Shown: positions 7,945-55,333 of the stretch, one piece after another
Position numbering within the stretch: the first letter of the stretch is position 1
Layout of the letters: every line of letters starts with the position of its first letter
Source of the DNA: Dipteris shenzhenensis
Taxonomy: Eukaryota
NCBI GenBank assembly: GCA_047967505.1
Contig: CM106538.1
Length of the DNA stretch: 64,000 bases
Direction: 5' to 3' (one strand)
Notes under the pieces: generated by a model
The model's input: only the letters and a program-made list of their open reading frames with translations
Databases searched by the model: none
What the model was told of the DNA's origin: nothing
Position numbers and translations under genes: made by a program

Positions 7945-7984
7945 AGAGAGAGAGAGAGAGAGAGAAAGAAAGAAAGAAAGAAAG
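7945..7984. repeat. (GA)n-(GAAA)n microsatellite merging with the RTE-X tail
   Basis: Read directly from the sequence. Confidence 0.95.
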
Positions 7985-8722: not shown

Positions 8723-8938
8723 CTATAGCAGACACTGAGATAGGGTAGACAGATTCATATGACTCAAGGATGATAACTTTGTTAATGATTCGTGTGCCAA
8801 GGGCATGATTTATAGCACAAACACTTCCATTGACATCACACCAATGAACTAAGCTATGATGTGACACACGTCACCTTCCTTGACTCTTTCACTCACCTTC
8901 CTTGACCCTTGCACTCACCAAAAGTGGCAATACACCCA

Positions 8939-12790: not shown

Positions 12791-13866
12791 AATGGCACAC
12801 TATGGTCTGACCCAGGAGGTTTCTTGGAGACATATAATGATAGAGACATGATCCTCTACACTGAGATGCACAAGAGCACACAGTAACTAGATATACATGG
12901 GAGTTAGCTCACAAGAGGGAGTTGAAGAGAAAGAAAGAAAGTTTATTAAAGTCTTTGGAGGACCGATGGGTCTATGAGATTGAAAAACCTAATACAATGA
13001 GCTGTGGTAGTGGAGCTAGTAAACAAACATCCACACCAATGCAGAATGCAAAAAATGCAAAATGGCAGTACTAAGTCCTAAGTACAACATAGTCATGTCG
13101 ATAGTCGACTATATATCAATCTCAGCATCATCGTCATCATCAACATCATCAAAATCATCATCATCCTCGTCATTAGCAGCAGGACATCAGGATGGATTAG
13201 GCAGTGGAGGCATGAGGTCAGCAATAGAGCGTTGTCAGCCCCTCAAGGGTGTAGTCTTGCTACGTCTCCTAGTCGTAGCTCTGCGTCTAACCAGGGCCAC
13301 TGTGACCCCTGTCGGTCGGGCTCAGACCCTAAACAAGGAGGGGATGTCCCCAAGTACGATCTATGTGTCAACCCTCTGTCTAAGCTGTCGGGTCACAGGC
13401 TCCGGGTCACGGTTATGTTGAGGTCTCGTCTTGTGGGCGTCTGTGATCTAGCTGAAAGAACTCCGTGATAGAGCTCTGAGAGGTATCAATCGAGGAAGAA
13501 GTCTCTGCTCCTGTCTCCGTGCTCGGAGTATCCTCTCGCGGTGTCTAAGCACATCATAAATGAAACCAACCAAACACCGCTGGTCTAGGTAGGAGAGGAG
13601 ACGAGCCAAACCCCCCTAACTATCTCTGAAGAGGCAATAGAAACGCCCTCGGATCTCATAGTAAACAGGACACCTGAAGATGAAATGCTCCTCTGTCTCA
13701 ACCTCCTGCATGTCACATAGTGTGCATATGCGCCTCTCCCTGGGTAACCGCTCTGCTCTGCCACTCTCGATATGAAGTCTATGTGAAGAGACCCGGAACA
13801 GTCCAAAAGAGATCCTCAACGAGTGGGGTAGGTGCATCTACATGTATCCTGGTGGATCAATGAAAC

Positions 13867-14014
13867 CCTCCGTTGTGATATGTAAGAAGTGATCTCTGTA
13901 GAAGCCCAGCTTCACTGGAAGATCACTCAGGCCCAACCAAGTCCTCCGTTGTGATATGTAAGAAGTGATCTCTGTAGAAGCCCAGCTTCACTGGAAGGTC
14001 ACTCGGGCCCAACC
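13867..14014. repeat. 76-bp tandem duplication inside RTE-X ORF2
   Basis: cctccgttgtgatatgtaagaag...ggcccaacc at 13867 and 13943. Confidence 0.92.
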
Positions 14015-16989
14015 GTGTCCGGAATATGTGTAGCTATAGTAGATCCTCACAGATAACCTAGTTGACCTCGTGTGATAGAAGGGGAGAGAACGAAGCATGC
14101 ATGTTGTAATGGAATGGAGATAGTCTGTCCATGTGGAGCCCTAGCCCCTCAAACCATCTCTCTGTGCATGCATACCAGCACCTCTGGTCTCCCCCTGCTG
14201 CAAGTGCTATAGAAGAGGACAGTGCTAGCCATGGTATCCTGCTACGCCCAGAGGTGTAATCCCCATATTCCCTGACTCGGTACAGGTATGTGATGGCCTG
14301 AAATGCAGCATCTAACTATAATGGGGGTGACCCAAATTCCGCCCGAATGATCCAGTGAGGAACGGATGGCTTACCACAGATCATCCGTGATAACATGAGA
14401 ACCTGCAGCTGCTTCACCCTGGCCCACTCTATATCCGACAAGTCTGGCCCTCAGCATGGACTGTCATACATCCCTACTGAGCGGACCAAGGAGTCAAAAA
14501 GCAACCCTTTGGTCCGTGGATTCTGAAAGTGAGAGCCGAAGCACTGCCTCTCTAGTCTAGCCAATGAAGCATATCCTCTGCTCAGACGTGCATGCATCAC
14601 CGGTCTCATAGTGAAGATGGGTCCAGAAAAGACGACCCCAAGATAAGTGTATGATGAAACTACCTCAACAGGGGACCCATCAAATGTGAACCTGGCGCAT
14701 GACGATTCGAGACGTATTGAAGATCATAACCTTGGTTTTATCCAGGTTGACCTTCAAATCATGAGACTCACAAAATACTGTAGTGTGTCAAGGTGTCTCT
14801 GGAGCCCCTCTGCTGAGGAAGACAAGAGAGCCACATCATATGCGTAAAGCAGTATCTGGATCAACATGCCCGCGAGAGAGCAACCTACCCCCCCGTGTTT
14901 GCATCACTGTCTCGAGCTCGTCAATGTAGAGGCCAAACAAGGCAGGTGATAATGGACACCCTTGTTTGACCCCGATAGTGCTCACGATCTCGTCCGTCCA
15001 TCCAGATCCTGTTCGGACTCTGCCTGAAACTCGCTCATAAAGTGCCATGACAGCCCAAATGATCTCCTGGTCGTAACCCAAATCCTGTAGGCATTGTATG
15101 AGGCCGGCTCTCGGAACTGTGTCAAATGCCTTGTGGAAATCCACAAAGCAACAATAAACCCTTTGCTTCTGTGCCCTCGCCTCCTCGATGATACATCTGA
15201 GCGCGACAATGTGGTCCATGGTCCCATGATCCCGCTTGAAACGGGCCTGTCCCGCTGCTTCGAGTCCTTGACACTCTGCAAATCTGCTGACCTCAAAATC
15301 AAGTATTGATGCATAAATCTTAGACATGACATGTCCAAACATAATCCGAGCTCATGGGATCCCCTGCCTTGTGAATGGGTGAGATGGTGTTAATGGTCCA
15401 GATGCGTGGAAACCCCAAGCAAACCACTTCATTGAATAGCTTTGCTAAGATCGGGGCTAGGAAATTAATCCCATATGCAATGAACTCAGTGCATAGTCCC
15501 TCATGATCCTTCGCTCGGCCATTACGAAGTTTCATTACGGCATCCTTTAACCCCCCGCTAGTGAAGAGGGTGCAGGATGTGAGACGTGGCATGTGTGATA
15601 GGTTAGGGACTGGCTGATTTGGGATATCATAGAGTGTGCCTGCATAATCAAACCACACCTGAGTGTTAGTGAGTGGTGAGGGGGACCGTCTCTCTAGAAA
15701 TCTCCGCCAAAAGTCCTTAGAGTTGTTACTAAATAGAATGTTAAGTACCACCTCCTCGTTTCGGTGCACAAAGTCAAGTTTCTTCGTGCGTACCAGTCGG
15801 CGGTACTCGCATAGCATCTCTGGTTTGCTCGGAAGATTGTTTTTGGTTTTGAATCCGAGCTAACGGCGTAAAGCCTTACACTCATCATCGTACCAGTTAT
15901 TACAGGGTACGGTCCTGGGTGGAGCGAGTGGTGTGGGGAAAGGCGTGAAGAGCAACCTCGTGTAGTGAGTGGGTGACTAGGACAGCATAGTCCTCTAATA
16001 GGGGTATAAAGTCAATGTATGCAAGAAGTATGTACAGACGGCCAGAGTAAGTAGGTGAGTGATCACGATCAAAGCGTATATCATGGTAGGTGGAGTAAGA
16101 ACTCAACGGGGTAGAAAGAGCTGTGCGGCGGGGGGTAGAAATCCTAAAGAAAAGATAGGTATGATCAGCCCTTGGAGGGAGAGGTGTTACGGTAAAGTTA
16201 GTGATGCGAGATGTGAAGGCAGGGGATCCAATGATGTAGTCCACAACACTGAAGCCTCACCCATGTGGAAAGCACGTGATGCGGGCCCTCTATCAAGACC
16301 ATTATAAATAATGAGGTCATGCATCCTACCGAGGTCTAATAGGGCCTGTCCATAAGATGCGAACCGTCCTTGTCGGTCAGCCGAAACTCGTAACATACCT
16401 GCCTCCTCAAGGTCAATGTCTGGCAGTAGAGTGGAATCATCCATGAAGTCGAGTGGTGCCTAACGAGCACCTCTCCTCGCGTTGAAGTCCCCAACTAGGA
16501 GGAGTTCTTCGCAACCAGAGAAGTCAACAATGGACTGATAAAGAGCAACAAATGGGGATGTCTCATCCTCCCCTCGAATATCTCTGGCAAAGCGGGAGGT
16601 CTCGGGGGAAAATAGCAAACTGCAATAAACAGATCCTGGCTATCCATGTGCCGAATCCGGATCTAGAGAAACTTGGAATGTGTATCTCTCTGCTCCACTG
16701 AGATGGCCCCTAAAAGTGTGCATCTGTAAAGGACTGCGACTCCTCCTGACCCTTAAACCCCTCCAGTATCCCTCATCTCATCTGTGTAGATAGACTCCCA
16801 TGTATACCCGCTAAGTACTGGTAGTGGGCGCTCTGGACTCTGATGTGTCTCTATATAAAAGACTATGTCATGACCTGTATAGAATTCCAAGAAGTTCCCT
16901 GGTTCTGACCATAAGGTACCATTACAGTTCCAGACGGTACAGGATAGGGTCTCGGATGTTTGAGTCTCATAGACCCCGCCTCCCTATGT

Positions 16990-18399
16990 GGGAGGAGAGG
17001 TGGGTGCCCGATGGGGGCCTGTAAGGAGTCGTCCATCTCGTACTACTGCCCACTTCCCCTCGTTGCGGGCCTGGTCCCACTGTTGCAATAGAAAGCGCCT
17101 CTCCTCAACCTGTAGTGGAGTGAGGTCCTCATCCATGGAGATCGCTGGCTGGTCTCGTAAGGCTGACCACGACGTAAAGCCGAAAGTCGTGCCTCGGCGT
17201 CATGGAACTGTATGATAAGGGGCTGCTCTCGGTTGGGGTCCCTCCCAACCTGCCATGCTCTCTCAATCCTATGCTCAGTCGCCCCTAGAGTAGTGGCCAT
17301 GAAGGCCGTCGCATCTACCATCGGTGTAGCCTCAGTGCATGGGATCCCACGTACTCTGATGTTGAGAGCCTTGCTGGCTCTTTGTTGCTATTCCAGGAGG
17401 GTAGCCGAAATGGTTACCCTTGCAGGTTCCCGTTTGGCTACGTCGACCCATCTGGATGTCTCCTCGATGGCAGATTGCATGCTCGCAATCTGTGCCTCCA
17501 CAACTGGGGCCCCTGGGACTGTATGTATAGCAGTGACCTCATGTCAGAGCTGCGAGATCTCCTATCTGAGCCCTTGAATAAGATCAGTTTGGTCTCAGAT
17601 AGCCTGAGATTGCTCCTATATGAGACGCACCTGCTCCTGGGTGAAGCGTGTCTGCTCCTGTGCGAAGCGTGACAGCTCCCTCTCGCGCTCGAACCTCCAT
17701 CAGCAAGTTCTCCCAAGCCTCTGATGGGTCAGCTCGTCCGTAGTGGAAACTGCAAGGACTATGGCATGAAAGTGTGAGGATGAGACTGGAGGCTGGTGAT
17801 GACTGGGTGAGATGGGTGCGGTATGCAGATGATAGTGGCCTGGAGGAGGCGATCCCAGCAGGGTGTGGGAACGTGGGCTGACTGAGAGGTAGAGGGGAGA
17901 AAAAGGTTGAGTAGTGCGGAACAGTGTATGACCCCTCCAAAGGAGGTGTCATAATCGGAGAGAGAACTGTAGTGGGAGAGGAAGGGAGAGATGGAAGAGA
18001 TGGTGTCAATGACAACCCCTCTATCTTAGGGGAGGGTGGAGCAATCAATTTCATGGGTAGGGGTATATCAGAGCCAGGAGCTGTAACTGTAAAGGCTGTG
18101 GACGGAAGTAGAGCTGAAAGTGAAGTTGAAACTGAAACTGGAGCTAATGCTGAGACTAGCGCTGAAGCTGAAGATGAGGATGTAGTTGAGACTGAAGTTG
18201 AGACTGAAGCTGGAACTGAAGCTAAAGCTGATACTGAAGCTGAGGCAGAGGTGGACCCTGCCTTTGCTTTGCTGTCAACTCCGAGTCCACTGCAGTTGTA
18301 GCGTGTGTTCACATCCTCGAGTTCCAGTTGTGTTTGTTTCTTGGCTTTGTTGCCATCTTTCTTGGCGGCTTTATCTGTATCTTTGCCACCTTTCCCCAT
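16990..18399 (-). pseudogene. ORF1 of the RTE-X-like element (basic N-terminus, Ser/Pro-rich linker, coiled coil, RRM/CTD-like end), frameshifted
   Basis: ORFs 17584-18399 and 17043-17321; ALNIRVRGIP..RAWQVGRDPNREQPLIIQF..MDEDLTPLQ..GKWAVVRDG resembles the L1ORF1p/Transposase_22-type C-terminal half. Confidence 0.75.
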
Positions 18400-20175
18400 T
18401 TCGTTTGATTGACCCGTGTTGGTGTAGGTCTTAGTGCAGGAGCAGGAGTACGAGGCTCCGGGGGGTGGTTGTCCTTTTCAAATCAGACCTGAGACCACTC
18501 ATATATGTGGTCCGGAGAGAGGAGCATGCACGCAAATCTGGATACGAGTTTAGCTTTCAGGTGCTCGACCTATCTTACTATAGATGGACACAGCCCATAT
18601 GACACGATCCATGATGACATCACAGAGTTCTCCACGCAGGGAGACACACTCCTACAAGGGGATTTCAATGCACGGACACGAAATAGATAGGTGGGCCTGC
18701 CTGACTTCAGAGATGACAAAGATCCACACTTAGTACCGGAGCTAGATGTAGCTGATCTCGGAATATTGAGGCACTCTGTAGATGCCCCACAAGTGATAGG
18801 GTATGAACAACATCTGCTTGTGCTGGGGGCTATCCACGACTTGATCATCTATAATGGTCTCCATAGATGGCCATCTTCTGGAAGACTTGCTTGCTTCCCG
18901 CATGGCGCTGGGTCTAGTACAGTGGACTATCTAGTAGGCCCACTAGACTTTGTCTCACAGATACAGGACTTCACCATACCCCCCCCCCACACACTCAGAG
19001 TTGACCACACATACTTGGCCTTCCATATCTCTACCACCATGCCAGCCACAGTGAGAGCTCCCTCCCCACCCACTCGCTCGCATTCAGATCCACTTTGACC
19101 ATACCCTTGACCTAGTGTACATGAGTCACCTGGCCAAGGAGATCCCGGCCCTACTTTGGAGATGATATAGACCTCGCCAACGCTTCCAACACCCTTGTCT
19201 CAGTGGTACAGGCTGTTGCTACCAGACTCTTTCCCATGACCCAATCCAAGTGGGTTCGAGACGGGAAGATGCCTCAAAACCCTTGGTTCGACGATGACGA
19301 GTGCAGAGAGGCGAGAGCCCACCTCACATAGGAGCAGGCTTTGAGTCATCTGACATCAGCTAAGGCACACACGATCTTTCGACTGACATTCGTAAGAGGT
19401 GGGCCTTCCTCACACATAAGATGGATGAGATTGTCAGATCTTTCTGAGGAAAAGACCCAACCAATGGATAGGGGTTTCTATCGAAGGGGAAGCCACCTAT
19501 CCCCATTACCGACCCAGGGGTGTGGCACATGTATGCATGTTCCCTCTATGATGCCAAGATGCAGACACCACTGGATATGTCCTCTATGCCCAGGCCCACC
19601 AGTTGTCACATGTTCACGATACAGAATGTACGCTGCACTTCGTCGATTATACAATCGCAGCGTAGGACCATGAGGACCTACGGCCTGATCACTTTGCACA
19701 TGGACAGGAGGTCCTGGCTCCGATACTAGCACAGATGTTCAACCGGTTGTGATGGCTTTCCAACTACTTAGAGCACCACCACTATTGTGCCGATACACAA
19801 GGCCAAGGACCCTATGGAGACTAGCAACTACCATACCCTCATGATTGGCCATACTCTGGCCAAGATTTATGGATCAGTTTTAGAGAGGGAGCAGGCACTA
19901 GGACAAGCAAGATTCTAGAGACAACATTCTACCCTAGATCACATCTTGACTCTAAGGGCTATCATTGAGGAGGCGAGATCTAGACACCAGAAGGTCTATA
20001 CATGCTTTGTAGACTTTCGGAAGGCTTTTGACACTATCCCAAAATCCCGCATGATCAGGAGACTATAGGAGCTGAAGATTGCAGAGACACTGATATGAGG
20101 GGAGATGAGCCTATACAAGTCAGTCAAAGACAGAGTTAGTGCACCAGGTGGTCTATCGGACTTGGTCGAGAGTAC

Positions 20176-21993
20176 TGTAACAACAAAAAATGATATTTTG
20201 TTTTGAAACCTGTGGGAGGATTTGTGAGGTTTGCACGGTGACAAAAGCTAGCAACGGAGACAAAGAACCAAGAAGCGTGATGGAGGAGTTGGTGGCGGGA
20301 GACGGCTCTTTGCGGCTACTCTCGTTGCGGCTTGTCAATCTTTTGATGTCGACTACTTTATTTCATGTAATCATTAATGTGGGTTTGACACTAATTAGAA
20401 TAATTAGTGAAAATGATTGCAGAGGTGATTATGAGTGGAGTGCATCATTTTAAATACCACGGGTATGAATTATAAATACCTTGGTATAGGGATAGAATGG
20501 TTTGAGAGAGAGATTATTTGCTTTGTAATTGGGACATAGAAATGAGTCATATATTTAGAGTGGGCCAAAAGCCTACATGGACTCAATAATGTACTAAAAT
20601 AATAGGGAGTGCACATGGAGAGCATGTGGAGGGCATGTGGAAAAGTGCAGAGGAGTGTGGAGTCAAAAGGAATCCTTCTAGAATTCTTATGTGGAATGTG
20701 GAGGATGTTGACATGTGGAAAATAGGAGGGTCCTCTTGGGCTACATGTGGGAGGACTATTGATTTTTCTACTCAAAAGGATAAAGAAGCATCTTATGATG
20801 GGACACTTGTCAAAATCCTCCTAAAAGGACAATTGATGATGACCCATGCCCTTATGTTAGGAAGAGGTAAAAGAATCTACTCCCAGTAAATGTAACAGGG
20901 TGAAGGAAGGTGAGAATTGCACTATAATAGAAGCCCCTCCCCTCTCTCTCAAGGCATCTCATTTTTTCCTTGTAGCCTTGCCATTGCCTTGTATCTAGCT
21001 CCTTCTATGCCTCTCCTTTCCCTTGAGCCTTAGCCCCTCTCTTCATTGTAGTTCTCTCCGATTGGGAAGCTTTCCTGGGTTCCAAAACCAAGATCTTCCC
21101 TTCTTTTCCCATTTTCTCATATTTTTTCCCTCTTCGCTCAGGGAGCTCCATTGGTGCTCATGTATGGCTTGTTTTGGGATTTATTCTGAGGGGATTCTCT
21201 ACCCTTTAGGGCGACCTCAGTCCAATATGTATTGTGGAAGCAACCGCTTCAGTAAGAGAAATCGTTGCCTTTTCCTATTGCTCAAGTCGCTCTTGGACTG
21301 TTTTGGTACCCTGTCGTAAAACGGCCATAACTTTTTGCTCCCTACTCCGTTTTGGTCGAAACCTATATCACAATCTTCGTCTCTTTGAGCTCTATCCATT
21401 TATGTCTTTACTTCCATGTTATGATTTACTGAGAAAATGTTACAGTGCGCAGAACAGGGTAGACTTGGATTTGGGATAGTTTTGGAGTCTGTTACTCAAA
21501 TGGTCCTAACTTCTCATCTCTTGTTTCATTTTTGTGAACTATATGTCAACATTCTTGTCTTTTCAAACCCTACAAGCATGTGTTCTTTGTTTTGGGTTCT
21601 GAGGGTCAAAGGAAGAGCTATTCCCATGCTATCATAGCTGTATTTTTATTTCCAATAATTATGGGTACTCTTGTGTGGAGCTTTATCAAAATGATGCGAT
21701 CCAACAATGCCATACGTCAGACTGAGCCCTACCAATTCAGCCCCATCACTTCCATCCATGTAGTTCTTAGTATGAAAATTTTCTTCCAACAGAGGCTTGC
21801 TCTTACATTCGGCGCCGAACGCTTGGCAGAAATCGATGCTTCCCCTCAACCTTTCCTCTTTCCCATGTTGAACTATGATCTCACCTTTGATGTTTATATC
21901 TTTATCTTGCTTTGATTGGTCTATTTTCCTTTCCCTCTTGTTCTTTTGACTCTAAGAAGTGACTAGAATTAAGCCCCCAAATTCTGTGTCACA
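20176..21993 (+). mobile_element. Solo LTR (1818 bp)
   Basis: Termini tgtaaca...tgtcaca with flanking gtac at 20172-20175 and 21994-21997. Removal restores the host RT VESTIGVKQGCP. TATA-like ctataata at ~20922 followed by a CT-rich tract; no coding motifs. Confidence 0.88.
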
Positions 21994-24497
21994 GTACAAT
22001 CGGAGTGAAGCAGGGCTGCCCTAACCCTTTTCGGGCTTTACATTGATGACATCACTTCCGTCATAGACCGCTTAGGAGGCGGAGGATCACTACTAGCAGA
22101 TCTCATGATACAAATATTGGTATATGCTGATGACATAGTCCTTATCTTATCCTCAACAGAGGGGCTGCAGAGACGTTTGGAGTCCCTAGAGGTTTTCTGC
22201 AGAGAGAGAGACCTGACAGTCAACCTTGGCAAGACCAAGGTTATGGCCCTCAACCTCACATGTAGTGCTTCATTGACTCAGCTTCACCTACTGAGATGAG
22301 CCAATGGAGATAGTGCAGTCCTACACATATTTGGGAGCAGTCTTTACAAGACCTCTTTTCACTATGACACATGCAGCTCATGCACGACTCACACGGGGAA
22401 GGAGTACTCTGGCACGATTGGAGACGATTGGAGACAATGCTTCTAGGGACACTTTCAGGATCCATTGAGGAAGTGTTGGCTCTTTGATACGCTAGTGCGA
22501 CCGACTGCCATGTATGCAGCATCCTTCTGGGGTTGTAATCTATTGATAGCAAAGTGGAGGAGATTTGAGCAACTATAGGTGACTATGGGATCTAGGATTA
22601 TTCAGAGCAAGCCCTCAGTCCCTTATGAGATAGTACAAGCGGAGTTCACCATGACACCACTACAGAATGATGCCATCTTCCAAACAGTGACATTAATTCA
22701 TAGAGTCTTGGACCTAACCCACTGGAGACTAACGAGGCTGGCCCTCCAGAAGACTAGTTGAGAGCAGGGCATACACATGGTATGCACGTATATCCACATG
22801 GTTTGCCAGACATGGGATTCAGATGGGCAGGGTTCCCTTCCTTTCAGTACAGTATGGATGCACCCCCTAAGTGATCCCGCAAGAGGAGATTAACCGTATC
22901 ATACAGTTAGATCTCCACTCCACACGTCTCGGACTTGGGGGGAGATCAGGAGTTCCCCACCAAGACCTAGTTCTACCGCGATCAATTCCTGAGCGTCTCA
23001 AAGGAGGGATTCATGATCAGACCCCAATATGTGGAGGACAAAGGAGTCTCACATGCCTTGAGGATGGCTATTGGGAAAATGTAAGTTTCATATCATTAGC
23101 TGAGGATTGAGACAGGGAGAGCAGCACGTATATACCTAGAAAGCAGCGGATCTCCATGCTATGCACAGTGAGAGTGATTGAGATAGAGGAGCACTTTCTC
23201 TACGCGCCTACCCAGCCTACTACGAGATCTGAGGGTGACACTCTTGTCTCTATCAGGATGGGAGTGGCTTCGGGCCACTATCACGATTGATCCGCTTCCT
23301 TGACCAGGTCTGCATTGGGCTCTATCTACTTGAGATGCGCCGACACAGGGAGACCCTCCTATGATAGATCAGAGAGCAACAAGAGGTGATCAGACCATAG
23401 GATACAGAGGCTAACTAGACACAGCGGTGAGTCACAGATTTCTATGTTTTTGAGTCAGCTCCAGGCGACAGTGGGGTGGAGGAGGAACTATCTGATATGT
23501 GGGCAGTCTGGATTACCGAGAGAGACCTGCAAGGCCACCTATGACATGGAGAGCAACCAGAGCACCCTCTATTGGGGTCCGACATATCACAGCTTTTCTC
23601 AGAGGACTCTTCCACCAGCAACCCTTCTCCACCTAGTTGCGCCTCCACCCGCAGCGCACCTCCTCCCCGCCTAACTACGTACCCACCTGCAGCCCCGTCT
23701 ACCTTACTGTGCCTCCACCCACATCCCTCCCTACCCGCCTCCTATCCCCCGCGTCTCCTCGCTACTCGTCACCTGCCCCTCCATACCCACCTCCTATCCC
23801 TCGCCGCGTTGCCTTTGCAGCCCCTCCGTCATGCTCCTGCAGCACCTCCTTGCCCACCATCTGCCTCCTATCCCTTGCTCATGCTCGGCCATCCGCTTAC
23901 AGCCCCCCTATAGAGAAACGATAGGGTTTGCAGTGGAGCGATCAAAAAATAGACAATACTCAGATACAACTGAAGAACGGAACTCAGAAAACATAGTGCC
24001 TGTCGGTAATATGAAAAACTGAATACAAGAACCTCAAGCTGTCGTGTCTTAAGGACCGTGGCTGAGGTGAATCAGAAAGATGATTCCATGTAGAGAAACT
24101 GTAGAAAAGATAGCAATAGAGGGAGCGAAGCGCAGTCCTCCATGTAGCTCGATGATGACGAAGAAGATGAAGGGCTAGAACTGCCCTAGGAAATGGCTGA
24201 AAACCAGCATGCTCTGAGGAAGGAACCTTCAGGCTATCTGGAATAGCAACATGATGAAGAAAAGGAGCAGATCTAGAGCAGGAGGGGCAGATCTGGAGCA
24301 GAAGAAGCAGAGGGGCAGATATGGTGCAGAAAGAGCAGAGGAGCAAAAGAGACAGATCTGGAGTAGGATGGGACAAATCTGGAGCAGAAGGAACAGAGCT
24401 GAAGTAGAGGAGCAGATCTGGAGCAGAGGAGCAGAAGTTGGGACAGATCTGGAGGAGAGGATGGAGCAGCCAGGAGGCAGGAAGGAGAGGCAGAAAG

Positions 24498-26011
24498 AAA
24501 GAAAGAAAGAAGTGTATTATTGTCCACTAAAGACCAAAATGGGCCCATGGGACATCAAGAACTCTGCATACAAGATAGCACAAAATCAAGGTGCCACAAA
24601 GAAGAGGCATCGTCGAATATCATCTAAGTGCTACGCAATACAATGCAAGTGAAAGTACATAATGTCAAATCTGAGCCTAAATACAAAGTAAACTAGATGC
24701 AAGGAAACCACCCCTGGGTGCAAAATGGGGGGATGAGTACAATATGCCAATGCAAAGATACAAGTCCAGGTGTCACGGAGTCTGAGAACCAAAATATGGA
24801 AATCCTGTCCATCGACTCTGCCTCCTGCTATGAGAGTACAAATCTGAGCAAAGGTGAGGTGAGCGGCTAGTGGGGCGAGATCTCCATGAGTAAGTCTCCT
24901 CCGAAAAGCTGCCATCATCCTGGATCGTCTGGAGATGAAGCGGCGAGTACGTCCCCTATGTAACAAGATCCTGCGGCGTCTACAAACCATCTCATATGTA
25001 CATCCACAGGGTGGAGGCATGTGTCCTGTGTGAGCTCTAACCTCCTCGTGCTCCTCCTGGTCTCTGTCCTCTAGTATAGCGTGTGCCTGAGCTCTATCAA
25101 GCTGGGCTCTATCACGCTCCAATCTGTGCTGATGGTCTCTGAGGTAGTCTCGTCGAAGCATAGTGGCCTCCCTGACATAAAGAGCTAGGCAATGCTGATC
25201 CTCGTAGTCCATCACTCGTGAGAGAGGTCCAAAGCCATCCGTGAAGAGACAGTGGAATCTACCTCTGAGCTCATAATATAGCGGGCATCTGCAAATGAAG
25301 TGCTCCTCTGACTCCACCTCTCCCATGGTGCAACAAGGGCAGATCCTCGTCTCTCGGCCTGGTCGCCGTCCATCCTCCATGCGTCGCATCCTACCAGTCT
25401 CTATCTCGAGCTGATGCGAAGAGACTCTAAGCTGGCCAAGGGCAATCCTCAGTGAGTGGGACATGTGGATACCTGTATAACCTGGTGGAATGACAAATCC
25501 ATCCTCTGAGATCCGAAGGAAGTGGTCACGATATGTGGCCATCTTCGTCGGAAGCTGCGTGGGATAAATCCAAGTGCGATACGTATGAAGCTGCAGCAAG
25601 TCTGCTCTCGTGACCTGGCTAAGCTCGTGGCGAGTCAACTCAAGATGAGGGGCATCTATGCTGTATCGAAAGGGAGGCAGTCTATCCATGTCTAGTCCAA
25701 GAGATGTGAGCCACCTAGTGAGTCTGAAGTACCAGCAGTATCGGGCCCCAGATCGCCGTGCCAACTCCATAGAAGATGCAAGTGCTAACCATGGCAACTG
25801 AGCTCTGCCTGCTGCTGAGTCTCCAAACTCCCTAACCCTGTGCAAATACATGACTGACTGAAACGCTGCATCCAATGCAAGGGGAGTAGCTCCAAACTCT
25901 GCTAGCATGATCTCATGCGGAACTGTAGCCTTGGCCCTAATGAGCTGAGAGAACATGATGATCTGTAACCTCTCTACTCGTCTCCGATCTGCAGCGCCGA
26001 GGTCTCCTGCC
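24498..26011 (-). mobile_element. Young 5'-truncated RTE-X-like LINE (1.5 kb) with 7-bp TSD
   Basis: TSD cagaaag at 24491-24497 and 26012-26018; (CTTT)n tail; uninterrupted frame 24631-26011 containing RVSSHQLEIETGR..CPCC..ESEEHFICRCPLY. Confidence 0.93.
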
Positions 26012-26180
26012 CAGAAAGGAGCCCAGAGAGAAGGCAGCAGCCAGGAGGCAGAGAGGAGCAGAACTGAAGAGGAGAGGTAGAAGTGGAGCAGGCGGGGCTG
26101 CAGCAAAGCATGGAGGAGAAGAGGAGCAGCTGCAGGTCCTGTCCTGTCAGAAGGAGTGTGGGGGCAGATGCCTTTTATAG

Positions 26181-26275
26181 GCCAGACCTAGCTGGTCGGC
26201 CAGCTGGTCGGTGGGCCTGCCAGCTGGTCGGCCAACTGGTCGGCCAGTTCTGGTCGGCCAGACCAGCTGGACTTT
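26181..26275. repeat. Tandem 12-bp ccagctggtcgg repeats (~6 degenerate units)
   Basis: Read directly; each intact unit contains the palindrome ccagctgg. Confidence 0.85.
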
Positions 26276-26940
26276 CTGGCCACTTGTTTGGCTGAGATGG
26301 CTGGCCTTTTGGCTGGCCTGTGAGCTGTTCGATTGCCCCATAAATTGGGGATTGCTTAGTTGCTGAATACCCCCCTCCACCACCGACAGCCTTTTCACCC
26401 CACCTCTGATATTAGCCCTCCTTCTAACAATGGGGGGGCTCGTCATGCCCCCACGCTAGGACCTGCCACCCAAAAAAAAAAAAAGGCTACAGGATAACAG
26501 GAGTCAATTTCCGAAATGAGAAAAGGGGAGAAAGACAAAGACAAAATCAAGAAAGAAGACAAAAACCAGCAGATACAATTGAAGCTCGAGGATGTGAATA
26601 AGCGCTTCAACTGGAGTGGACTCGGAGTGGATAGCAAAGTAATTCATAAGACGGGATCTACCTCAGCTTCAGCTTCAACTTCAGCCTCAGCTATAGCCAC
26701 ATCTGCAGTCACATCCACTCCAGCTACTTCTTCAGCCACAAATATACCCATGACAGGAGGTCCAACATCGACTTCCTCCCCCTCTCCCGCGAGCGATAGA
26801 GGGGTCGACACCGATCTCCTCCCTCTCTCCTTCTCCCACTACAGTTACAGTCTCCCTATCTGCCTCATTGCCTATGTCACCTACATCTGAGGTATCATAT
26901 ATTGTCTCACACTACTCGAATTTTCTTTCCCTCTTCCTCT

Positions 26941-29900
26941 AACAGGGCCAAGGGCCCCTCTGTGCACTGTATGGGCACCTCCGACAGCACCAGGGCTGCC
27001 AAACAGCAGCGTGACCTGCAAAAGAAGCCCCCGCAACAGGTACTAGGGCTCTCAGGCCCCCCCACGATCTGGGACAGGGCTCAACGCCCTCCAAACACCA
27101 GCAAACTACTCCAGGGGGCTCCTAGCTCCCCCGGTGGGCTGCTATCTCTGTCCAAACACCCCCAACTGCCCTTGGACTTCTCAAGGGTTGCCATGGGCAG
27201 CCCCTAAGGTGTGGACAAACCCACAGGACCACACAGAAGGACCTGCAAAAATAAAGAACAAAATCATCATGACAATGAGGAGCTATGCAAAAGCTCTTGA
27301 AAGAGCAATGACAGTCTATATGGCTGGCTCACCACCCAAGAATGCTTCGAGGTCTTGACTCACCTCAGTAAAATTTGTATGGCTTTGATTGAGAAAGTAG
27401 ATAGCATCGAGACCACCAATGTGGCACTGATGGCAGAAAAAGCGCACATTGACAAAACATTGAATGAAATCAAGAAACAAGGAGGACATATGCAAGAGGA
27501 ATAGAGGAAGGAGAAAAGCAAGAAAGATGAATGGGAGAAGGAGAAAGAAACATGGGCAGCTGAAAAGACCAGCCTCAATGATAAAATGCAAGCCATGGGG
27601 ACAGAATTACAGCAGCTGAGGAACATGCAAGGGACAATGGAAGGGACGTGCAAGGCAATGGAAGAGCTGAAATCTGAGAATGAGAAGCTCAAGAAGAAGA
27701 TGGCAGCCTTACACACTACTATACAAGGGAAGCATGCTGAGTTCACACAACAAATCACTAAAGGGAATGCAAATATGCTAGAATGGAAGAATGTGGTTAA
27801 GAAGGGTGCAGGTGATCATGGGATCTAGGACGATAAGGAGTAAGCCCTCAGTTCCCCATCAGATCATATAGGCAGAGTTCGCCATGACACCTCTCCAGGT
27901 GGACGCCCTCTTTCAGACCGTGACTTTTCTCCACAAAGTTTCAGCCCCACCTCAGTGGAGATTATCGAGACTCGCACTAGAGTCATCCCGACGACGACTG
28001 GCAAAGAGGGGCTTTGATACAGCATGGTATGCATGGGTTTCCATGTGGTTTGATAGCCACGGTATCCAAATGGATAGGCTGAAGCTATGAGTATCTATGT
28101 TAGATCTCAAGCTGACATCTTTGGGCTGAGACTTCCCATCAGAAGGGAAGAGGAGCTACTTGACAGTGAGTTGGCAGATGACACAGCAGTTTACTTGGAT
28201 GCCACTCCACAGACGCTCACTTCTTTCAGGACAGCATTGGATTTATTTTGCTTAGCGGCAGGGGCACAGATAAATTGGCATAAATCCAATGGCTTTTGGA
28301 TCAGTGATGAGGACACTCCAGTTTGGGGGCTTGACATAGGATTCACTTGGGTTCAGAGGGGTGAGCCTATTAGGTATTTGGGCTGCCAGGTCGGCTTGGA
28401 TATTTCTACCATGCAGCAGTTTGCTCCCGTTTTGGAGAGCATCAGAAGGAAGCTTCTTTTTTGGAGCTCAGCCAAGCTGGATCTTGCCTCTAGAGTTGTG
28501 GTGGTCAACCAGGTCCTCTTGGCCACGACCTGGTTTGTTTGTTCATGCTGGTGCCGTTCTAGGGACTGCATCATTCAGCTCAAAAGACCGATCAGAAACT
28601 TTCTCTGGAGTGGGCTTGATGGCACAGCAGATGCCTTAGCCAGGGTGGCTTGGGAGACCCTCATCCTCCCTACACAGGAAGGGGGTCTCAATATTATTGA
28701 TCCAGATTTACAGTGCAGAGCTTTACTTTGCAAGATGGTGGTGCGGGGACTTATGCCAGGGCAGGAACCGTGAAGGACTTTCTTATCGGCAGCATATAGA
28801 GGTGCACACCTTCTTCAGGAGGAGACTGGATGAGCAGTGTTAGGTGGATCTTCACCACAACACACCTCAAATCACCTTTGTCCCCTCTCATGGTTGCCAT
28901 TCTGAAAGCTTGGGCCAGTTTCAGAAGCACTCTTCGAAGGATTCCTCCTTCCTCTCGGGAAGAGATTGATAGGCAACCCATCATGTGGAATGACAGTATT
29001 TTAGATGATCATGGCAGACCACTGGGTGCCTCACTCTACATGCAGTGGTCCAGGTGGGAGAGGGGACCTGCATCATCCATGGGGTCTTGGAAAGCTTTCC
29101 GTAGGCTTCCAGAGGAGACCAAATCCAGGACATCTCAGAGGGAGTGCAGGGAGAATCTTGCAAATTGAGGCAGCCCTTCCAAAGGTTTGGGTAGACACAG
29201 ATGATACGCCACTCACTTCCTCCACTTGGGCAGGTGCTTTTACGAGAGGCGGTGTTCCACTTCAGGTTTTGGCCTTTCGAGATGCACAGGAGGATGCTTT
29301 AGTTTTTAGTGTCCAGGATGGTGGCAGATTGCTCAGGTCCACAGAGGACATCTTGCTTGAGTCTGCTTTTCAGCCTATCAGGGTTGTAGGTCTTTTGGTG
29401 CAGGGATCAGATTCAGAGTGGTTCCTAGACCCAGACCCCTGGCTACTCTCCACCGGGTCTTGGAGGCTCTAGATCTTTGGGGGAGTTCCCATCAGGTATT
29501 TGCAGTGGGACCCCGGAGAGTGGGAGTGGGTTGACGCAGGGCATCGAGAGAAGAGCATCCCCTTCTTTCGTTACACGGTCAGTAATGCCAGGAGATATCA
29601 GCTCAGTAGTAGAGGTTGGAGACCTTCCAGAGTTCCTCATTGGGAGACATTTGATATCACTGCGGATCTGCAGAGGTGCTTTTGGGAGAGACTCTGGAAA
29701 TCCCACAGGAATAGAAAGATCACTATCTTCTTTTGGCTTTCTATCCATGGTGGGATTGCAGTAAACCTTTGGAGGTCCAGGTTCGGAGCCGACCCTACTT
29801 GCCCTCGATGCCTCTCTGCTTCGGAGACTATTCAGCATTGCTTATGGGATTGCAGACAGGCAAGGATGATTTGGATAGGGGTAGCCAGGACTTTCAGTCA

Positions 29901-31567
29901 CTTTGCCCACTCCCCATTTTTTATGACATGGGGCTCAATGGCTTGGCTTTCTCTTACAGGACCTCAGGTTTTCTATGAGAGTTGACTCCTCTCGGGCCAT
30001 TTCGGTTCGACGTCATCGGATTGAGTCCTGTTCGTTGGATGTGGTACCACACCTTCCTTTTACAGCTGTACATGCCTCTGTGGATACTTCTTGGGAGATT
30101 CTAGCGAGCATAGCATCCTGGCATATCCAGAGAGCCAGATGCACAGAGGCTTTGGAGGGTACTCAGGTTCATCCCTTGCACACATTGGACAGACACCGTA
30201 CATACTTTGATGGCCGTATGGACGGGTATGCACGGAGACTCCTGTGCAGCCTTAGCTAGGAGGGCTTCTTTCTTCAGGGAATGGAAGGATTCTCCTTTCT
30301 TCTCTGAGACTACTACAGGGTTAAGGTGGCACTTTCAGTCTCAGCCTTGGTTGTTTTCCACCTCACTCTAAGGGGGTTTTTTTTTTAATTTATCCTTATG
30401 ATTTCATGATGTATTCCGCTTTGAGCTTGCTCTCGCGGGTTTTTTCTCTTACTTAATAAAAGTTTTTTTCTTGGGGAAAAAAAAAAATGGATGGGCTCCC
30501 TCCCTTTTAGTACAGCATGGATGCACCACCGGAGCTCATTCCACATGAGGAGGTTAACCGTATCATACGGTTAGACCTTCTCTAGCTCCACACATATCGG
30601 GCTTTGGGTAGGGGATCAGGAGTTCCCCACCAAGACCCAATTCTATCATGAGCACTTTCTAAGGATATCGGAGCATGGTCTCATCATCATCATGCCCTAG
30701 TACCTCAAGGATAGGAGAGTCTCACACACCTTGCACATTGCTATCGAACAAACACGAGTCTCATCCCCCCAGTTGCGGATTGAGGCAGGGAGAGTGGCTG
30801 GCATACATAGAGAGTAGTGGGTCTATAGACTATGCACGATGGGGGAGGTTGAGATAGAGGAGCATTTTCTCTGTGTCTGTCCGGCCTACTATGAGATCCG
30901 AGGGCAATACCACTGTCACTTTCAAGAGGGGCTTGGCTTCGGACCACTCACACGGTTGATACGTTTTCCCAACCAGGTTTGCATTGGGCTCTACCTGATT
31001 GAGATGTGGAGAGTTGAAACACATAGATTCCGTTGTGTGGCAGGCCAGAGATCAGCTATAGTTGATGCCTCAGGACACCGAGCTAGACCGAGCGCAGAAA
31101 CGCAACACTGATTTTTACGCATCCAAGCCAGCACCAGATGAATCGAGGGGGAGGAGCTGGAGCAGAGAACTATGGATGAGCATTGTCACCAAGATGTGGC
31201 ATTACTCTCGATGTAGCCCATCAGATATAGAGATTTAGAAGAGCACGCCCCCCGCCACCGCGGGAGATAGCCCAGAAGACACAGATACATGAGCTCTTTG
31301 CATCACATCAGAGGGCCATGAGGGAGCCGGGCTATATAGAACTTGCACATGTACTTGGAGCTCTAGTTCTAAGCAGTACTTGATTGCTCTTTTCCTACTA
31401 TTTTGTACTAGCTTTTTGCATTTTTAGCACTCAGCACTCAGCAAGGGCCTTAGTGAGCCCTTTGCTTCAACCCACAGTGTCGTATGGGTTACATATATTT
31501 TGTACCTTGTCTCATAGACCCGCGAGGTCTCCTAAAGACGTTAATACACTTTTCTTTCTTTCTTTCT
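26941..31567 (+). mobile_element. Internally deleted RTE-X-like element (ORF1 part joined to post-RT ORF2) with (CTTT)n tail
   Basis: The coiled coil at 27340-27810 matches 11050-11520. At ~27807-27811 the sequence jumps to a region matching 22575 onward. C-terminal EEHFLCVCPAYYEIRG (30839-31111); tail at 31549-31567. Confidence 0.87.
28081..30484 (+). mobile_element. 5'-truncated L1-type copy (2.4 kb) with 13-bp TSD
   Basis: Highly similar to 52858-55279. TSD aaatggataggct (28068-28080) / aaatggatgggct (30485-30497); poly(A) tail; host frame QMDRL|PPF resumes afterwards. Confidence 0.95.
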
Positions 31568-32005: not shown

Positions 32006-33419
32006 GGCCGGCGTGGAGCAAGGCCTCATCCAAGAGCTCAAACAAGACATCTTACAGCTCTGACAGGAGGTAGCAGCCATCCATGCAATCCCAGGAAGTA
32101 CCCCAGTGGTCGAGGCACAAATTGCGAGCATGCAATATGTAATTGAGGAGACATCCAGATGGGTAGATGTGGCCAAATGAGAACCTGTGAAAGCAACCAT
32201 TTCAGCCACTCTCATGGAGAAGCAGCAAAGAGCCAATAAGGCTCTCAACATCAGAGTCTGTGGCATCCCACGCACAGAGGCTACACCGATGAGCGATGCG
32301 ACTACATTTGTGGCCACTACTCTTGGGATACTTGAGCACAGGATTGAGAGGGCTTGACAGGTGGGAAGAGACCCCGATCGAGAGCAGCCCCTTATCATAC
32401 GATTCCATGATGCTCCTGCATGACTCCAGCTCTACAGCACAAATCAGTCTTATGGGACCAACTATCTATATCCATAAATGAGGATCTCAACCCCTTACAG
32501 GTTGAGGAGAGGTGCACTCTGATACAACAGCGGGATCAGGCTCGCAAGGATGGGTAGTGGGCGGTAGTTTGAGATGGATGACTCCTTACAAGCCCCCGTT
32601 GGGCATCTGCCCCTCGTTCCACATAAGGAGGCGGGGTCTATGAGAGTCAGCCTATGGAGACCCTGTCCTGTACCATTTGGAACTGTAATGGTAACTTATG
32701 GTCAGAACCAGGTAACTTCTCGAAATCTTAGACAGGTCGTGACATAGTCTTTTATACAAAGACACATCGGAATCTAGAGCGCCCACTACCAGTAGTCAGC
32801 GGGTACACATGGGAGTATGCTTACAGAGATGAGACAAGGGACATAGGGGGGGTACGAGGATCAGGAGTAACAATTCTTTACAGGTTCACCCCTAAGGGAA
32901 CCATCTCAGTAGAGCAGAGAGATACACACTTCAGATTTCTCTGGATCCAAATCCGACACACAGACAGCCGAATTTGTTGTTGCAATATGCTATTTCCCCC
33001 TCGAGACCACCCACTTTGCTCGAGATATCCAAGAGGAGACGGAGACATCACCATACAGCTCTTATCAGGACATCGTCGACCTCTCAAGCCGCGGGGAAGT
33101 CTTGCTGGTTGGGGACTTCAATGTGAGGACAAAGGTCCGTCAGATACCATTCTCGACTTCAGAGATGATTCCATTTTACTGCCAGACATTGATCTTGAGG
33201 ACCCAAGTATGATGCAAGTTTCAGCTGATAGACGAGCTCCGAACACATCTTACGGGCAAGCTCTATTAGATCTAGGCAAGATGCATGATCTTATTATTTA
33301 TATTGGTCTTGATAAATGGCCCTCCTCAGGTGGTTTTACCTGCTTCCCACATGGAGGGGGCTCTAGCACTGTTGATTACATCATGGTATCCCTTTCCTTT
33401 GCCTCTCGTATCACTAACT

Positions 33420-44591: not shown

Positions 44592-46339
44592 TTTACATCA
44601 GCCCTGCAGGGCATTTGGGACTCTGGCGAGATGCCCCGGTCGCTCATAGAGGGTCTCATCCACCTTATCCCGAAAGGAGGTTGCAGAAATCTAGTGTCCC
44701 AGTGGAGGCCTATCACACTTCTGGGGACTTGTTACAAGATTTTGGCCGAGGCAATCAGCCTCTAATTGCAGCCGCTTCTCCCAGATCTTACTCATGACAC
44801 ACTGAGACGGGATTTGTGCATGGCAGAAGCATTTTTTATAACATTTTCTCTTTCTGGGAAGCTTCAGAGTGGGCCAAGCAGAGCGGCCAGAATCTAGCCA
44901 TTCTACTCTTGGATTTTGAGAAAGCTTATGACAGAGTATATTGGGGTTTTTTGGAGGGCACCCTTCTATGTTTTGGCTTTACTGATGCTTGGATCAGAGG
45001 TGTTTCCTCTTTATATAGATCAGCCCACATCCAGGTACTTATTGGTGGGGTAAGGGGTGAGAGATTTCAGATTTCCAGATCAGTCCGTCAGGGATGCCCC
45101 CTTGCTCCTTTTCTTTTTTTGTTCGTGGCCGAAGCTATGAGTATCTATGTTAGATCTCAAGCTGACATTTTTGGGCTGAGACTTCCCATCAGAAAGGAAG
45201 AGGAGCTACTTGACAGTGAGTTGGCAGATGACACAGCAGTTTACCTAGATGCCACTCCACAGACGCTCACTTCTTTCAGGACAGCATTGGATTTATTTTG
45301 CTTGGCGACGGAGGCGCGGATAAATTGGCATAAATCCAATGGCTTTTGGATCAGTGATGAGGACACTCCAGTTTGGGGGCTTGACATAGGATTCACTCGG
45401 GTTCAGAAGGGTGTGCCTGTCAGGTATTTGGGCTGCCAGGTCGGCTTGGATATTTCTTCCACGCAGCAATTTGCTCCCGTGTTGTGGGGTATGCCAAAGG
45501 GATGGATCCCAAGAGGCATGAGAGGTTGTGACCTCTCGTATACATGGAATGTGTGCATGAGGCATTAGGCATTCATATGTGGTTTGTGGACTGCATGAAC
45601 ATAGTATAGTTGTCAATAGCAAAAAGTACACTCACGTGGGCATTCCTTCCACCCCATTTGGAGAGCCAATGCTTCTCAACTTATGCATCATTCTTCCACA
45701 CATGTGCATCCTCCAACCGGTATGTGACAGGTAGCCAAGATTTTCAGTCACTTTGTGCACTCCCCATTCTTTATGACATGGGACTTAGTGGCTTGGCTTT
45801 CTCTTATTGGGCCTCAGGTTTTTTATGAGAGACATGACTCTTCTCGGGCCATTTCGATTCGATGTCATCAGGTTGAGTCATGTTCTTTGGATGTGGTACC
45901 ACACCTTCCTTTTGCAGCAGTACATGCCTCTATGGATACCTCTTCGGAGATACTAGCGAGCATAGCAGCCTAGCATATCTGGAGAGCCAGATGCATAGAG
46001 GCATTGGAGGGAACTCAGGTTCATCCCTCGCACACATTGGCTAGTATCTGGATAGACATCATACATATTTTGATGGCCGTATGGACGAGCATGCAGGGAG
46101 ACTCTCGTGCAGCCTTAGCTAGGAGGGCTTCTTTCTTCAAGGAATGGAAGGATTCTCCTTTCTTCTCTGAGACTTTTACAAGGTTGAGGTGGCACTTTCA
46201 GCCTCAGCCTTGGTTATTTTCGACCTCATTTTGAGGGGGTTTATTTATCCTCATGGTTACATGATGTATTCCGCTTTGAGCTTGCTCTCGCGGGCTTTTT
46301 CTCTTACTTAATAGAAGTCTCTTTCTTGGAAAAAAAAAA
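44592..46339 (+). mobile_element. L1-type copy (48808 family), 5'-truncated, with an internal replacement
   Basis: Matches 52321-53211, then 245 bp of foreign sequence (45485-45729, ending tgtgaca), then matches 54668-55279; poly(A) at 46330-46339. Confidence 0.93.
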
Positions 46340-46564
46340 TGCCGCTACAATGAGTGGAGGCTCAAGAGGGAGCCAATATGACAAAACCCTAGGGCTAAAT
46401 TCCCTAACTAGACTAAGTGTCCTAACTAACCTAGCTAGTACATGTACTACTATACCAATAGTCCTAACTGACTATAACTAGGCCTACAAGGCACATACCA
46501 AGGAATAAGTGGCACCTATGGATAGCCCATAGACAATGGCCTACAACCCCTATGAGTATGAGTA

Positions 46565-48288: not shown

Positions 48289-49322
48289 CTGAAGTATGTA
48301 ACAAAATTTCATAAGACACATACAAGTACCCATTTTTTGAACTTTAACTCAGAATTGCAAAGTTTCACGTTTATGTCACTTCCATTTGAAAGGGCAATTT
48401 AACAGAGACCTTAAATAGAACTCAGATCCAGATGCTTAAGAATAAGACTAAACACACGATGATGTACTTCTTCTTTACAAGGCAAGGGGGCAAGTCAGGG
48501 ACTTGCTCACTGCACTCCATCCCGCCATAGTGAAGATCATGCTTCACTAAGAAGACAAATCCTGAAAGAGAACGTTGCCCAGCATAAAAGATATCATAAC
48601 CAGCCAAATGACAATGTTGTCCAGATTACATGTGCTGGTTATGCTCTTGTAAAGCCACTATGTCAGGCTGCAAATGATTGAGATACACCTATGCTATCTT
48701 CCATTTTCTAGCATCACAAAAACCCTATACATTGAGTGTCAAACATTTGATTTGTGATAACGTATTTACAATTATGTACATTGCCAACAAAAAGTTTGCC
48801 CAAGGCATCTGGTCCTCCAGAGCTGCTGCTCCTCCCCGTTCCCCTGCTGCTCCCTCAGCCCGTCCCTCCCTTCTCCCCTCAGTCTGTCCCTCGCCCCCTC
48901 CCTGCTGCTCCGCCCCCTCCCCCCTCCTGCTGCTCCGCCCCCTCCCCCTGCCTGTCCCTCGTCCCCTCCCCCCTGCTGTTCCGCCCCCTCCCTGTTGTTC
49001 CGCCCCCTCTCTTCCTCTCAGCCCTCTCCCTACCTCTCAGCCTGCTCCCCCCCGCCTCCTCCCTGCTTCTCCGCCCCCTCCCCCCCCCCCTCTCCTCCCC
49101 TTCCCTTCTCTCCTTCCTCTCCCTCTCCCTCTCCTTCTTCTCCACTCCCTCTCAGCCCTCCCCTCCAGTGCCCCCTCCCCTCTCAACCCCTCTCCTCCTC
49201 CCCTTGCCCCCTGCTTCCTCCTTGCCTCCTTTCCCCTCCTTCTGCCCCCTTTTCTCCCGCAGCTTATTGGAACAGAAGGAGCGTTTAATTTGTTAGAGTC
49301 GGCCTCCCCACCTTGATTGGCG

Positions 49323-55172: not shown

Positions 55173-55333
55173 AGGATTTTTTATTTATCCTCATGATTTC
55201 ATGATGTATTCCGCCTCGAGCTTGCTCTCGCGGGTTTTTGTTCTTACTTAATAGAAGTCTTTTTCATGGAAAAAAAAAAAAGGCAGATCCAACTCAAGTC
55301 TGCATATCCACCTCTGGGTCAGAACCTCTACCC

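Follow-up and report, generated by a model that had tools for sequence, protein, structure and literature searches.

Long interspersed nuclear elements (LINEs) of the stringent type, such as ZfL2, need a 3' stem-loop together with a repeat tail, and the ORF2 protein of the L2 clade binds this stem-loop, recognising the stem in a general and the loop in a specific manner (PMC4176376; PMC3747384). RTE-clade LINEs and Au-like short interspersed nuclear elements (SINEs) of flowering plants have a common 18-nt 3' hairpin with compensatory changes (PMC6007223; Nishiyama and Ohshima 2018), and the microsatellite-like repeats that follow it are thought to aid priming (PMC6007223). A monocot L1 lineage and its SINEs likewise carry a 3' stem-loop with compensatory mutations, which has been taken as stringent recognition (PMC3747384; Ohshima 2012/2013). 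As for RTE-X elements, microsatellite tails are listed for green-algal RTEX families (PMC3747384), a kelp genome contains an RTEX-1 family whose copies are more than 95% similar (PMC4421812), RTE-X is common in bivalves (PMC10294476), and in Ectocarpus it is the largest LINE group, the most abundant family of which is non-autonomous and shares its 60-bp 3' end with the autonomous families (PMC12477816). Here we describe a two-helix hairpin, with its flanking motifs and repeat tail, at the 3' ends of a LINE family in a 64,000-nt stretch of Dipteris shenzhenensis DNA (contig CM106538.1, assembly GCA_047967505.1), which is referred to as a whole as the window. We consider it probable, at roughly 60%, that this module is the 3'-terminal cis recognition element of a stringent-type LINE, its hairpin being recognised by the element's own reverse transcriptase.

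The module stands directly 5' of all four runs of at least three CTTT units in the window. In agreement with the original prediction, which was made from the window alone, the same layout could be read at all four places: from 5' to 3', every copy has an outer helix of 4-5 bp, a CAU bulge, a 5-bp inner stem-loop, a bulge of about 5 nt, a box of the form AAUAMAC, and the tail. In copy A (31508-31567, plus strand) a first strand of 5 nt is followed by CAU, an inner hairpin (5-bp stem, 5-nt loop) and a 5-nt bulge; after the strand complementary to the first come 2 nt, AAUACAC and a tail that is U-rich at its start and continues as (CUUU)3. The coordinates 24521-24554 predicted for one copy, which had been given without a strand, are correct and belong to the minus strand. 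The claim that the four copies fold the same way was borne out for copies A, B1 and B2, whereas in copy C each helix has a mismatch. The features of the four modules are as follows.

31501-31504, plus strand: UGUA motif 5' of hairpin A, read in the sequence.
31508-31540, plus strand: two-helix hairpin of copy A, with outer GUCU/AGAC plus a terminal U-G, CAU bulge, inner AGACC/GGUCU, 5-nt loop and 5-nt 3' bulge; minimum free energy (MFE) -10.8 kcal/mol with the same shape; 56.8 bits.
31543-31549, plus strand: AAUACAC box of copy A, containing the poly(A)-signal-like hexamer AAUACA, found by pattern match.
31550-31567, plus strand: tail of copy A, a U-rich start and then (CUUU)3, found by a scan for tail runs.
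7993-8026, minus strand: hairpin of copy B1, with outer GUCC/GGAC, CAU and inner GGGCC/GGCCU; 60.8 bits.
7965-7990, minus strand: AAUACAC box (7984-7990) and (CUUU)5 tail of copy B1, followed by (CU)n.
24521-24554, minus strand: hairpin of copy B2, as B1 except for inner GGGCC/GGUCU, with G-U at pair 3; 53.7 bits.
24494-24518, minus strand: AAUACAC box (24512-24518) and (CUUU)4 tail of copy B2.
12951-12980, minus strand: hairpin of copy C, with one A/C mismatch per helix, leaving 3 bp in the outer and 4 bp in the inner; 53.6 bits.
12930-12947, minus strand: AAUAAAC box (12941-12947) and (CUUU)3 tail of copy C.

The association between hairpin and tail is specific. A regular expression for the CAU bulge and inner hairpin has four matches in the window, all of them at the (CTTT)n tails, compared to a mean of 0.23 and a maximum of 3 in 300 dinucleotide shuffles, none of which reaches four. 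Among viral contigs, the hairpin accompanies none of the 73 chance matches of the box-plus-tail pattern. With filters off, covariance model R2 scores only the four copies in the window, at 53.6-60.8 bits, the next best match reaching 13.2 bits (E 0.84); since R2 was built from window copies, the independent tests are the shuffles and the viral-contig control. A generic two-helix descriptor was too permissive by itself, with 59 matches in the window and the loci described below versus 56 in three shuffled sets and 11 in a 44.7-kb viral control, and it was applied to position-specific checks only. The MFE structure from RNAfold is the two-helix shape in three of the four copies (A, B1 and B2) and a 4-bp inner stem only in copy C, and the single-sequence folding z-scores of the four window copies are -1.80, -2.08, -0.84 and -0.22. 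Rfam has no match in the window at its gathering score. When two 221-nt stretches were searched at E of at most 10, four weak matches at chance level were obtained (E 2.1-8.1), none on the hairpin of copy A; the lone match overlapping the B1 hairpin, TMV_UPD-PK3 at 7983-8006, is on the opposite strand and scores 9.4 bits against a gathering score of 34 (E 8.1).

Homology of the coding parts places the four copies in one LINE family with an apurinic/apyrimidinic endonuclease (APE) and a reverse transcriptase (RT), divided into three subfamilies (A, B and C). The copies had been described as otherwise unrelated, which is incorrect: their coding parts are homologous at 44-54% amino acid (aa) identity among A, B and C. 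The count of four copies stands as a count of sites, but because B1 and B2 are 94.6% identical over 774 nt, the window contains three independent lineages. Similarly, the statement that the upstream 3' regions do not align applies to the 50 nt just upstream of the hairpin, where A, B and C are identical at 0.44-0.54, the random level, compared to 0.57-0.70 over the terminal 44 nt, but does not apply further up, in the coding parts. All four modules are in the sense orientation and follow the end of the LINE coding homology, and the module is kept in 5'-truncated copies. The open frame at 24631-26187, just upstream of the B2 hairpin, encodes P0001 (518 aa), the C-terminal part of an APE and RT LINE protein, whose full-length homologues P0002-P0005 are 1216-1271 aa long with the Pfam domains Exo_endo_phos and RVT_1. 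Pfam found no other domain in these proteins, and matches in the protein Atlas were unnamed RVT_1/Exo_endo_phos clusters only. An RTE-X label for the family is plausible, and the occurrence of RTE-X in brown algae and bivalves fits the sources of the sequences.

Relatives were collected by protein homology alone, giving 45 metagenome loci and, from genome collections, one and then 25 loci on what are evidently mis-binned eukaryotic contigs; viral contigs gave no relatives with alignment A1 and one distant relative (L144) with alignment A7, in which an (AAT)98 run lies about 1.1 kb downstream of the frame. Two covariance models were built, R1 from five ends with the originally predicted structure and R2 from 14 matches, and their alignments were used in place of those from MAFFT, which misplaced the inner 3' strand in short ends. 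With R1 and R2, the metagenome loci yielded 16 further module ends at E of at most 0.02, one of them belonging to L078, a 5-kb element whose 1249-aa frame is intact. Where the contig allows a view, they are situated 3' of the C-terminal coding homology (L075-L078, L082 and L089), and the terminal 44 nt have a mean identity of 0.74, while the preceding 150 nt stand at 0.56-0.59 and random sequence at about 0.53. In two full-length relatives, an upstream frame precedes the APE and RT frame with a single in-frame stop between them, of 272 aa in L078 (307-4875) and 564 aa in L074 (614-5719); the L074 upstream frame, the only one scanned, contains no Pfam family. Several eukaryotic LINEs (L074, L120, L121, L122, L124, L127 and L128) were also found in contigs filed as bacterial metagenome-assembled genomes, several of them from marine-animal symbionts, and these contigs are most likely mis-binned host DNA.

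Base pairing is maintained through base changes. The compensatory changes noted originally, U-A versus C-G at the innermost outer pair and A-U versus G-C at inner pair 3 with G-U as an intermediate, are present in the window, and in alignment A6 (20 rows) the former pair is U-A in 16 rows and C-G in three and is never unpaired, while the latter is G-C in 13, A-U in two, G-U in one and another combination in two. The covariance-model check proposed with the original prediction, carried out on the window and the fetched loci, showed modest covariation. Both sides are changed in five of ten pairs in A6, with nine double-sided cells versus 4.2 in shuffles (3/500 reach nine) and a covariation score of 0.223 versus 0.175 (5/500), and in alignment A5 (14 rows) 90.2% of cells are paired and the covariation is matched by none of 500 shuffles; two further measures, given below, were not above shuffles. 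Since the alignments follow the model and their rows are related sequences, the pairing statistics are moderate evidence.

It is possible to read the same data as a constraint that concerns the last ~50 nt as primary sequence only, for example for protein binding or priming, with the hairpin being incidental to a partly palindromic sequence. Most pairs barely vary in the close set (C-G in 17 of 19 and G-C in 16 of 18 rows at particular pairs), two of the five whole-structure measures do not exceed shuffles, and the unpaired YAU bulge, the A-rich 3' bulge and GUUAAUA are as conserved as the stems. However, 86.0% of the 186 cells in A6 are paired, and this falls to 29.8-58.9% when the 3' partner is slid by one to three columns; G-U intermediates occur where pairs switch (B2, and L076 and L077); and the distant relatives described next have the same shape with different letters at eight of nine pair positions. 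We regard a constraint limited to primary sequence as quite unlikely.

The distant relatives provide stronger evidence than the close-set statistics. Three of them (L074, L127 and L121), at 25-37% aa identity, have the same architecture made up of other stem letters. Across 11 ends including distant relatives, with the register in part set by descriptor or eye, 97 of 99 cells are paired, and at least two Watson-Crick types occur at eight of the nine pair positions. The distant ends are as follows.

L074, 25% identical to P0002: the sole descriptor match in a 430-nt 3' untranslated region, where a 4-bp helix leads through a 4-nt bulge to a 5-bp stem-loop and, after a 5-nt bulge, is closed by its second strand, directly before AUAAAC and (AU)n at the contig end.
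L127, 37% identical to L074: a layout like that of L074, yet in other letters, then AAUAAA and (UAU)n.
L121, 31% identical: an outer helix, 5-nt bulge and GC-rich stem-loop, then an AAUAAA-like sequence and (UCUUG)4.
L122, 34% identical: a helix whose 5' side bears a 3-nt bulge and whose inner part differs, followed by AAUAAA and (ACUU)6.

L126, which is still more distant at 23% identity, has a simple hairpin and (ATTCTG)4 at its end, and this fits the general rule for microsatellite-tailed LINEs.

The motifs that flank the hairpin resemble those of a transcript end. Within the box, the hexamer is AAUACA, AAUAAA, AAUAUA or AAUAGA according to lineage, which we take to be known variants of the poly(A) signal, and it is AAUAAA in all four distant relatives. 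In 10 of the 13 ends examined, TGTA occurs in the 35 nt that precede the outer stem, at a distance of 8-19 nt from it, and it is also found in L074 and L127, so that the canonical polyadenylation pair of AAUAAA or a one-letter variant plus an upstream UGUA is present. Window tails consist of (CTTT)3-5 and span 12-20 nt, while those of the relatives are (CTTT)n, (TTTCTA)n, (TTTCA)n, (AT)n, (TCTTG)n, (ACTT)n or (TAT)n. In neither the four window copies nor the loci read does an A-run follow the tail, and the poly(A) tail 10-30 nt downstream that would complete a canonical polyadenylation site is absent there. A third helix between UGUA and the box (UAYA), seen in the folds of A, L076 and L074, was considered and rejected: UGUA is invariant while the box changes, in copy C the helix would contain a G/A mismatch, and its spacing ranges over 3-15 nt.

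Given these motifs, the module might mainly be a 3'-end formation signal, in which UGUA and the hexamer would recruit host cleavage and polyadenylation and the hairpin would hold these signals accessible or at a set distance, or make the polymerase pause, rather than being bound by RT. The lineage-specific hexamer variants and the frequency of TGTA are consistent with this, as is the tail length, which is about the distance we take to be usual between signal and cleavage. An unrelated L1-like family in the window, described below, carries AATAAA or AATAGA some 20 nt upstream of its poly(A) tail, and such hexamers are therefore probably read as signals in this organism. A host signal, however, would have no need of helices that persist through base changes and vary from one subfamily to another, and the lack of an A-run after the tails argues that reverse transcription did not start on a poly(A) tail. 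We consider it unlikely that 3'-end formation is the main role of the module, although such a role is compatible with recognition of the hairpin by RT and may be part of the truth.

Several loci contain arrays of module ends. A new 5'-truncated copy begins 0-50 nt after a hairpin and tail in L087 (632-760), L115 (896-1000), L116 (1857-2039), L097 (1843-1990, equivalent to L111) and L095 (948-1400); in L082 (1664-1789) two copies stand tail-to-tail on one common (CTTT)n/(AAAG)n run, and in L100 (2278-2433) two ends are about 100 nt apart. This arrangement suggests insertion into tails or template switching. An action at the DNA level could also be envisaged, with the module serving as a preferred landing site for new copies or its cDNA hairpin priming second-strand synthesis, and besides these arrays the non-autonomous RTE-X partner of Ectocarpus "can be present in tandem" (PMC12477816). 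We find this highly improbable: tail-directed insertion would account for the arrays but not for why a hairpin is conserved 5' of the tail, the same arrays would result from a switch of template by RT, and the four window copies are not in arrays.

Recognition of the hairpin by the element's own RT remains our preferred explanation, and it shares the hallmarks of the stringent type: an extreme 3' position on the sense strand before the tail, a stem-loop with compensatory changes, albeit of modest strength, and a tail of short repeats rather than poly(A). The original prediction of a cis recognition element agrees with this position, with the retention of the module in 5'-truncated copies, and with its conservation down to 25-37% aa identity with changed stem letters. 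The RNA of the element would end in UGUA, the two-helix hairpin, 1-3 nt, an AAUAAA-like hexamer and a short (CUUU)n tail, the hairpin consisting of an outer helix of 4-5 bp, a 3-nt YAU bulge on the 5' side, an inner stem-loop of 5 bp and a 3' bulge of 4-6 nt. The element's own protein would recognise this hairpin on its own RNA, target-primed reverse transcription would start in the repeat tail, and slippage there would reset the number of units. In such a scheme, the hexamer would probably set the 3' end of the transcript within the tail or immediately behind it, and the hairpin would place RT on the tail; with the start directed to the tail in this manner, every copy, however 5'-truncated, would be expected to keep the module.

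A number of observations weigh against this explanation. Single-sequence z-scores are weak, ranging from -0.2 to -2.6 over the window copies and relatives, and copy C has a mismatch in both helices. Covariation in the close set is modest and comes from few lineages, and neither the double-changed pairs (78/500) nor the further pair types (102/500) of A6 are above shuffles. Among the distant relatives, the register of the three ends of L074, L127 and L121 was set by descriptor or eye, which favours pairing; the MFE fold of L121 from RNAfold lacks the outer helix (z -0.08); and the inner part of L122 differs. One end, L087:632-666, has no inner stem-loop, its outer strands forming a simple 5-bp hairpin followed by the usual box and tail, and the inner stem-loop may consequently not be essential. 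A fifth family copy in the window (copy D) has no 3' hairpin or tail downstream that covariance-model and sequence searches could detect. Finally, the SINEs carrying the module that the original prediction proposed to look for did not emerge, as neither the window nor the loci yielded a SINE or other non-autonomous partner with the module, and no tRNA-like genes were found in the five loci scanned; very short module-bearing copies exist (L100 and L095) and may be truncated LINEs.

The bodies of the elements were mapped by tblastn with P0002, the closest of the family proteins, and are arranged as follows.

27782-31567, plus strand: element A, matching P0002 residues 824-929 (27782-28081) and 926-1132 (30487-31105), split by an inserted L1-like LINE (about 28081-30487).
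7965-8723, minus strand: element B1, 5'-truncated, 0.76 kb, by homology to B2 and P0002.
24494-26187, minus strand: element B2, matching P0002 residues 816-1217.
12930-16863, minus strand: element C, nearly full length, matching P0002 residues 1-1116 with frame breaks.
18439-23361, plus strand: copy D, matching residues 33-1110 with a 1.8-kb interruption, head-to-head with copy C.

For B1, only a doubtful similarity of ~17 nt was seen as a candidate target-site duplication, and the 5' end of C was not located. Contigs of four runs over 24519-24796 have no variant letters in the B2 hairpin versus six variant places upstream, which with one to four contigs per run is too few to weigh; the runs that have sequence words in common with the window are labelled as one organism plus an "algae metagenome". 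The LINE inserted in element A (28069-30498) is 5'-truncated, L1-like and poly(A)-ended, with a flanking duplication of ~12 nt (28069-80 and 30486-98). Further members of this L1-like family occur at 44593-46341 and at about 48678-55281; the latter is full-length, with a zinc knuckle in ORF1, APE and RT, AATAAA/AATAGA and a poly(A) tail. Non-coding 5' regions of more than 1 kb, common to copy C and a copy F, lie upstream of the first coding residues at 16864-18403 (minus strand) and 32010-32746 (plus strand), and a fragment of this region lies upstream of element A at 26512-26940 (plus strand). The region downstream of copy D contains a CCT/CCC-rich stretch resembling proline codons (23600-23900), and a short tandem array of ~25-50-nt GGAGCAGATCTGGAG-like units adjoins the B2 tail at 24255-24464.

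If the role of the module is confirmed, it would supply the cis element for a retrotransposition reporter of an abundant LINE family, a means of finding non-autonomous passengers, and a way of annotating 5'-truncated copies by their 3' ends. Its retention of shape with different letters at 25-37% protein identity would make it a useful marker for a LINE clade, and the subfamilies present together would offer a natural case for how co-resident elements keep cognate recognition apart. A broader idea, which we offer tentatively and with little confidence, is that the module is an ancient, clade-wide composite signal, extending from algae to (probably) molluscs, in which the host signals UGUA and AAUAAA bracket the hairpin and the transcript would be cut within its own tail, where the hairpin-bound RT primes; the subfamily-specific letters of stem, loop and bulge would then reflect cognate recognition, and the tail would attract insertions and so build head-to-tail arrays.

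The original prediction knew of no description of such an element. The kind itself is well described, being already known from L2, CR1, RTE and plant L1 elements, and is an expected sort of feature; for this particular two-helix hairpin with an AAUAAA-like hexamer and an upstream UGUA, no description was found in Rfam or the literature searched, a search that lay outside subscription papers and Repbase. In CR1/L2-type ends a simple hairpin abuts the microsatellite, and they lack an intervening AAUAAA-like box. The present ends are like them in placing a hairpin before a microsatellite tail, and one end of the CR1/L2 type is that of L126. Like the brown-algal RTE-X and RTEX-N1 elements, the family appears to have a single open reading frame with endonuclease and RT, many recent copies and a conserved 3' end, and can stand in tandem (PMC12477816). 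The Ectocarpus tails are (C)n, however, and those of RTE families (CAA)n, with no (CTTT)n family listed, and a hairpin or stem-loop is not mentioned in the text or five supplements of that paper (PMC12477816). The Au/RTE ends are similar in having a short 3'-terminal hairpin, conserved via compensatory changes and followed by microsatellite-like repeats, but their hairpin is a simple one of 18 nt with another sequence in other hosts, and they have a known SINE partner, whereas none was found for the present family in the window and loci, and a T-stretch target signature. The monocot L1 hairpin differs in its clade, its poly(A) tails and its sequence. As in eel UnaL2 and zebrafish ZfL2-1 and ZfL2-2, the hairpin lies at the extreme 3' end, directly before short tandem repeats rather than poly(A); in contrast with UnaL2 and ZfL2, which belong to another clade with another sequence and have a single stem-loop of assayed function, the present module has two helices, an asymmetric internal loop and an abutting AAUAAA-like hexamer, and its binding by protein, initiation site, slippage and hexamer role are what we infer by analogy. 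The general picture is unchanged, because 3' ends made of a hairpin plus repeats are the rule for stringent LINEs.

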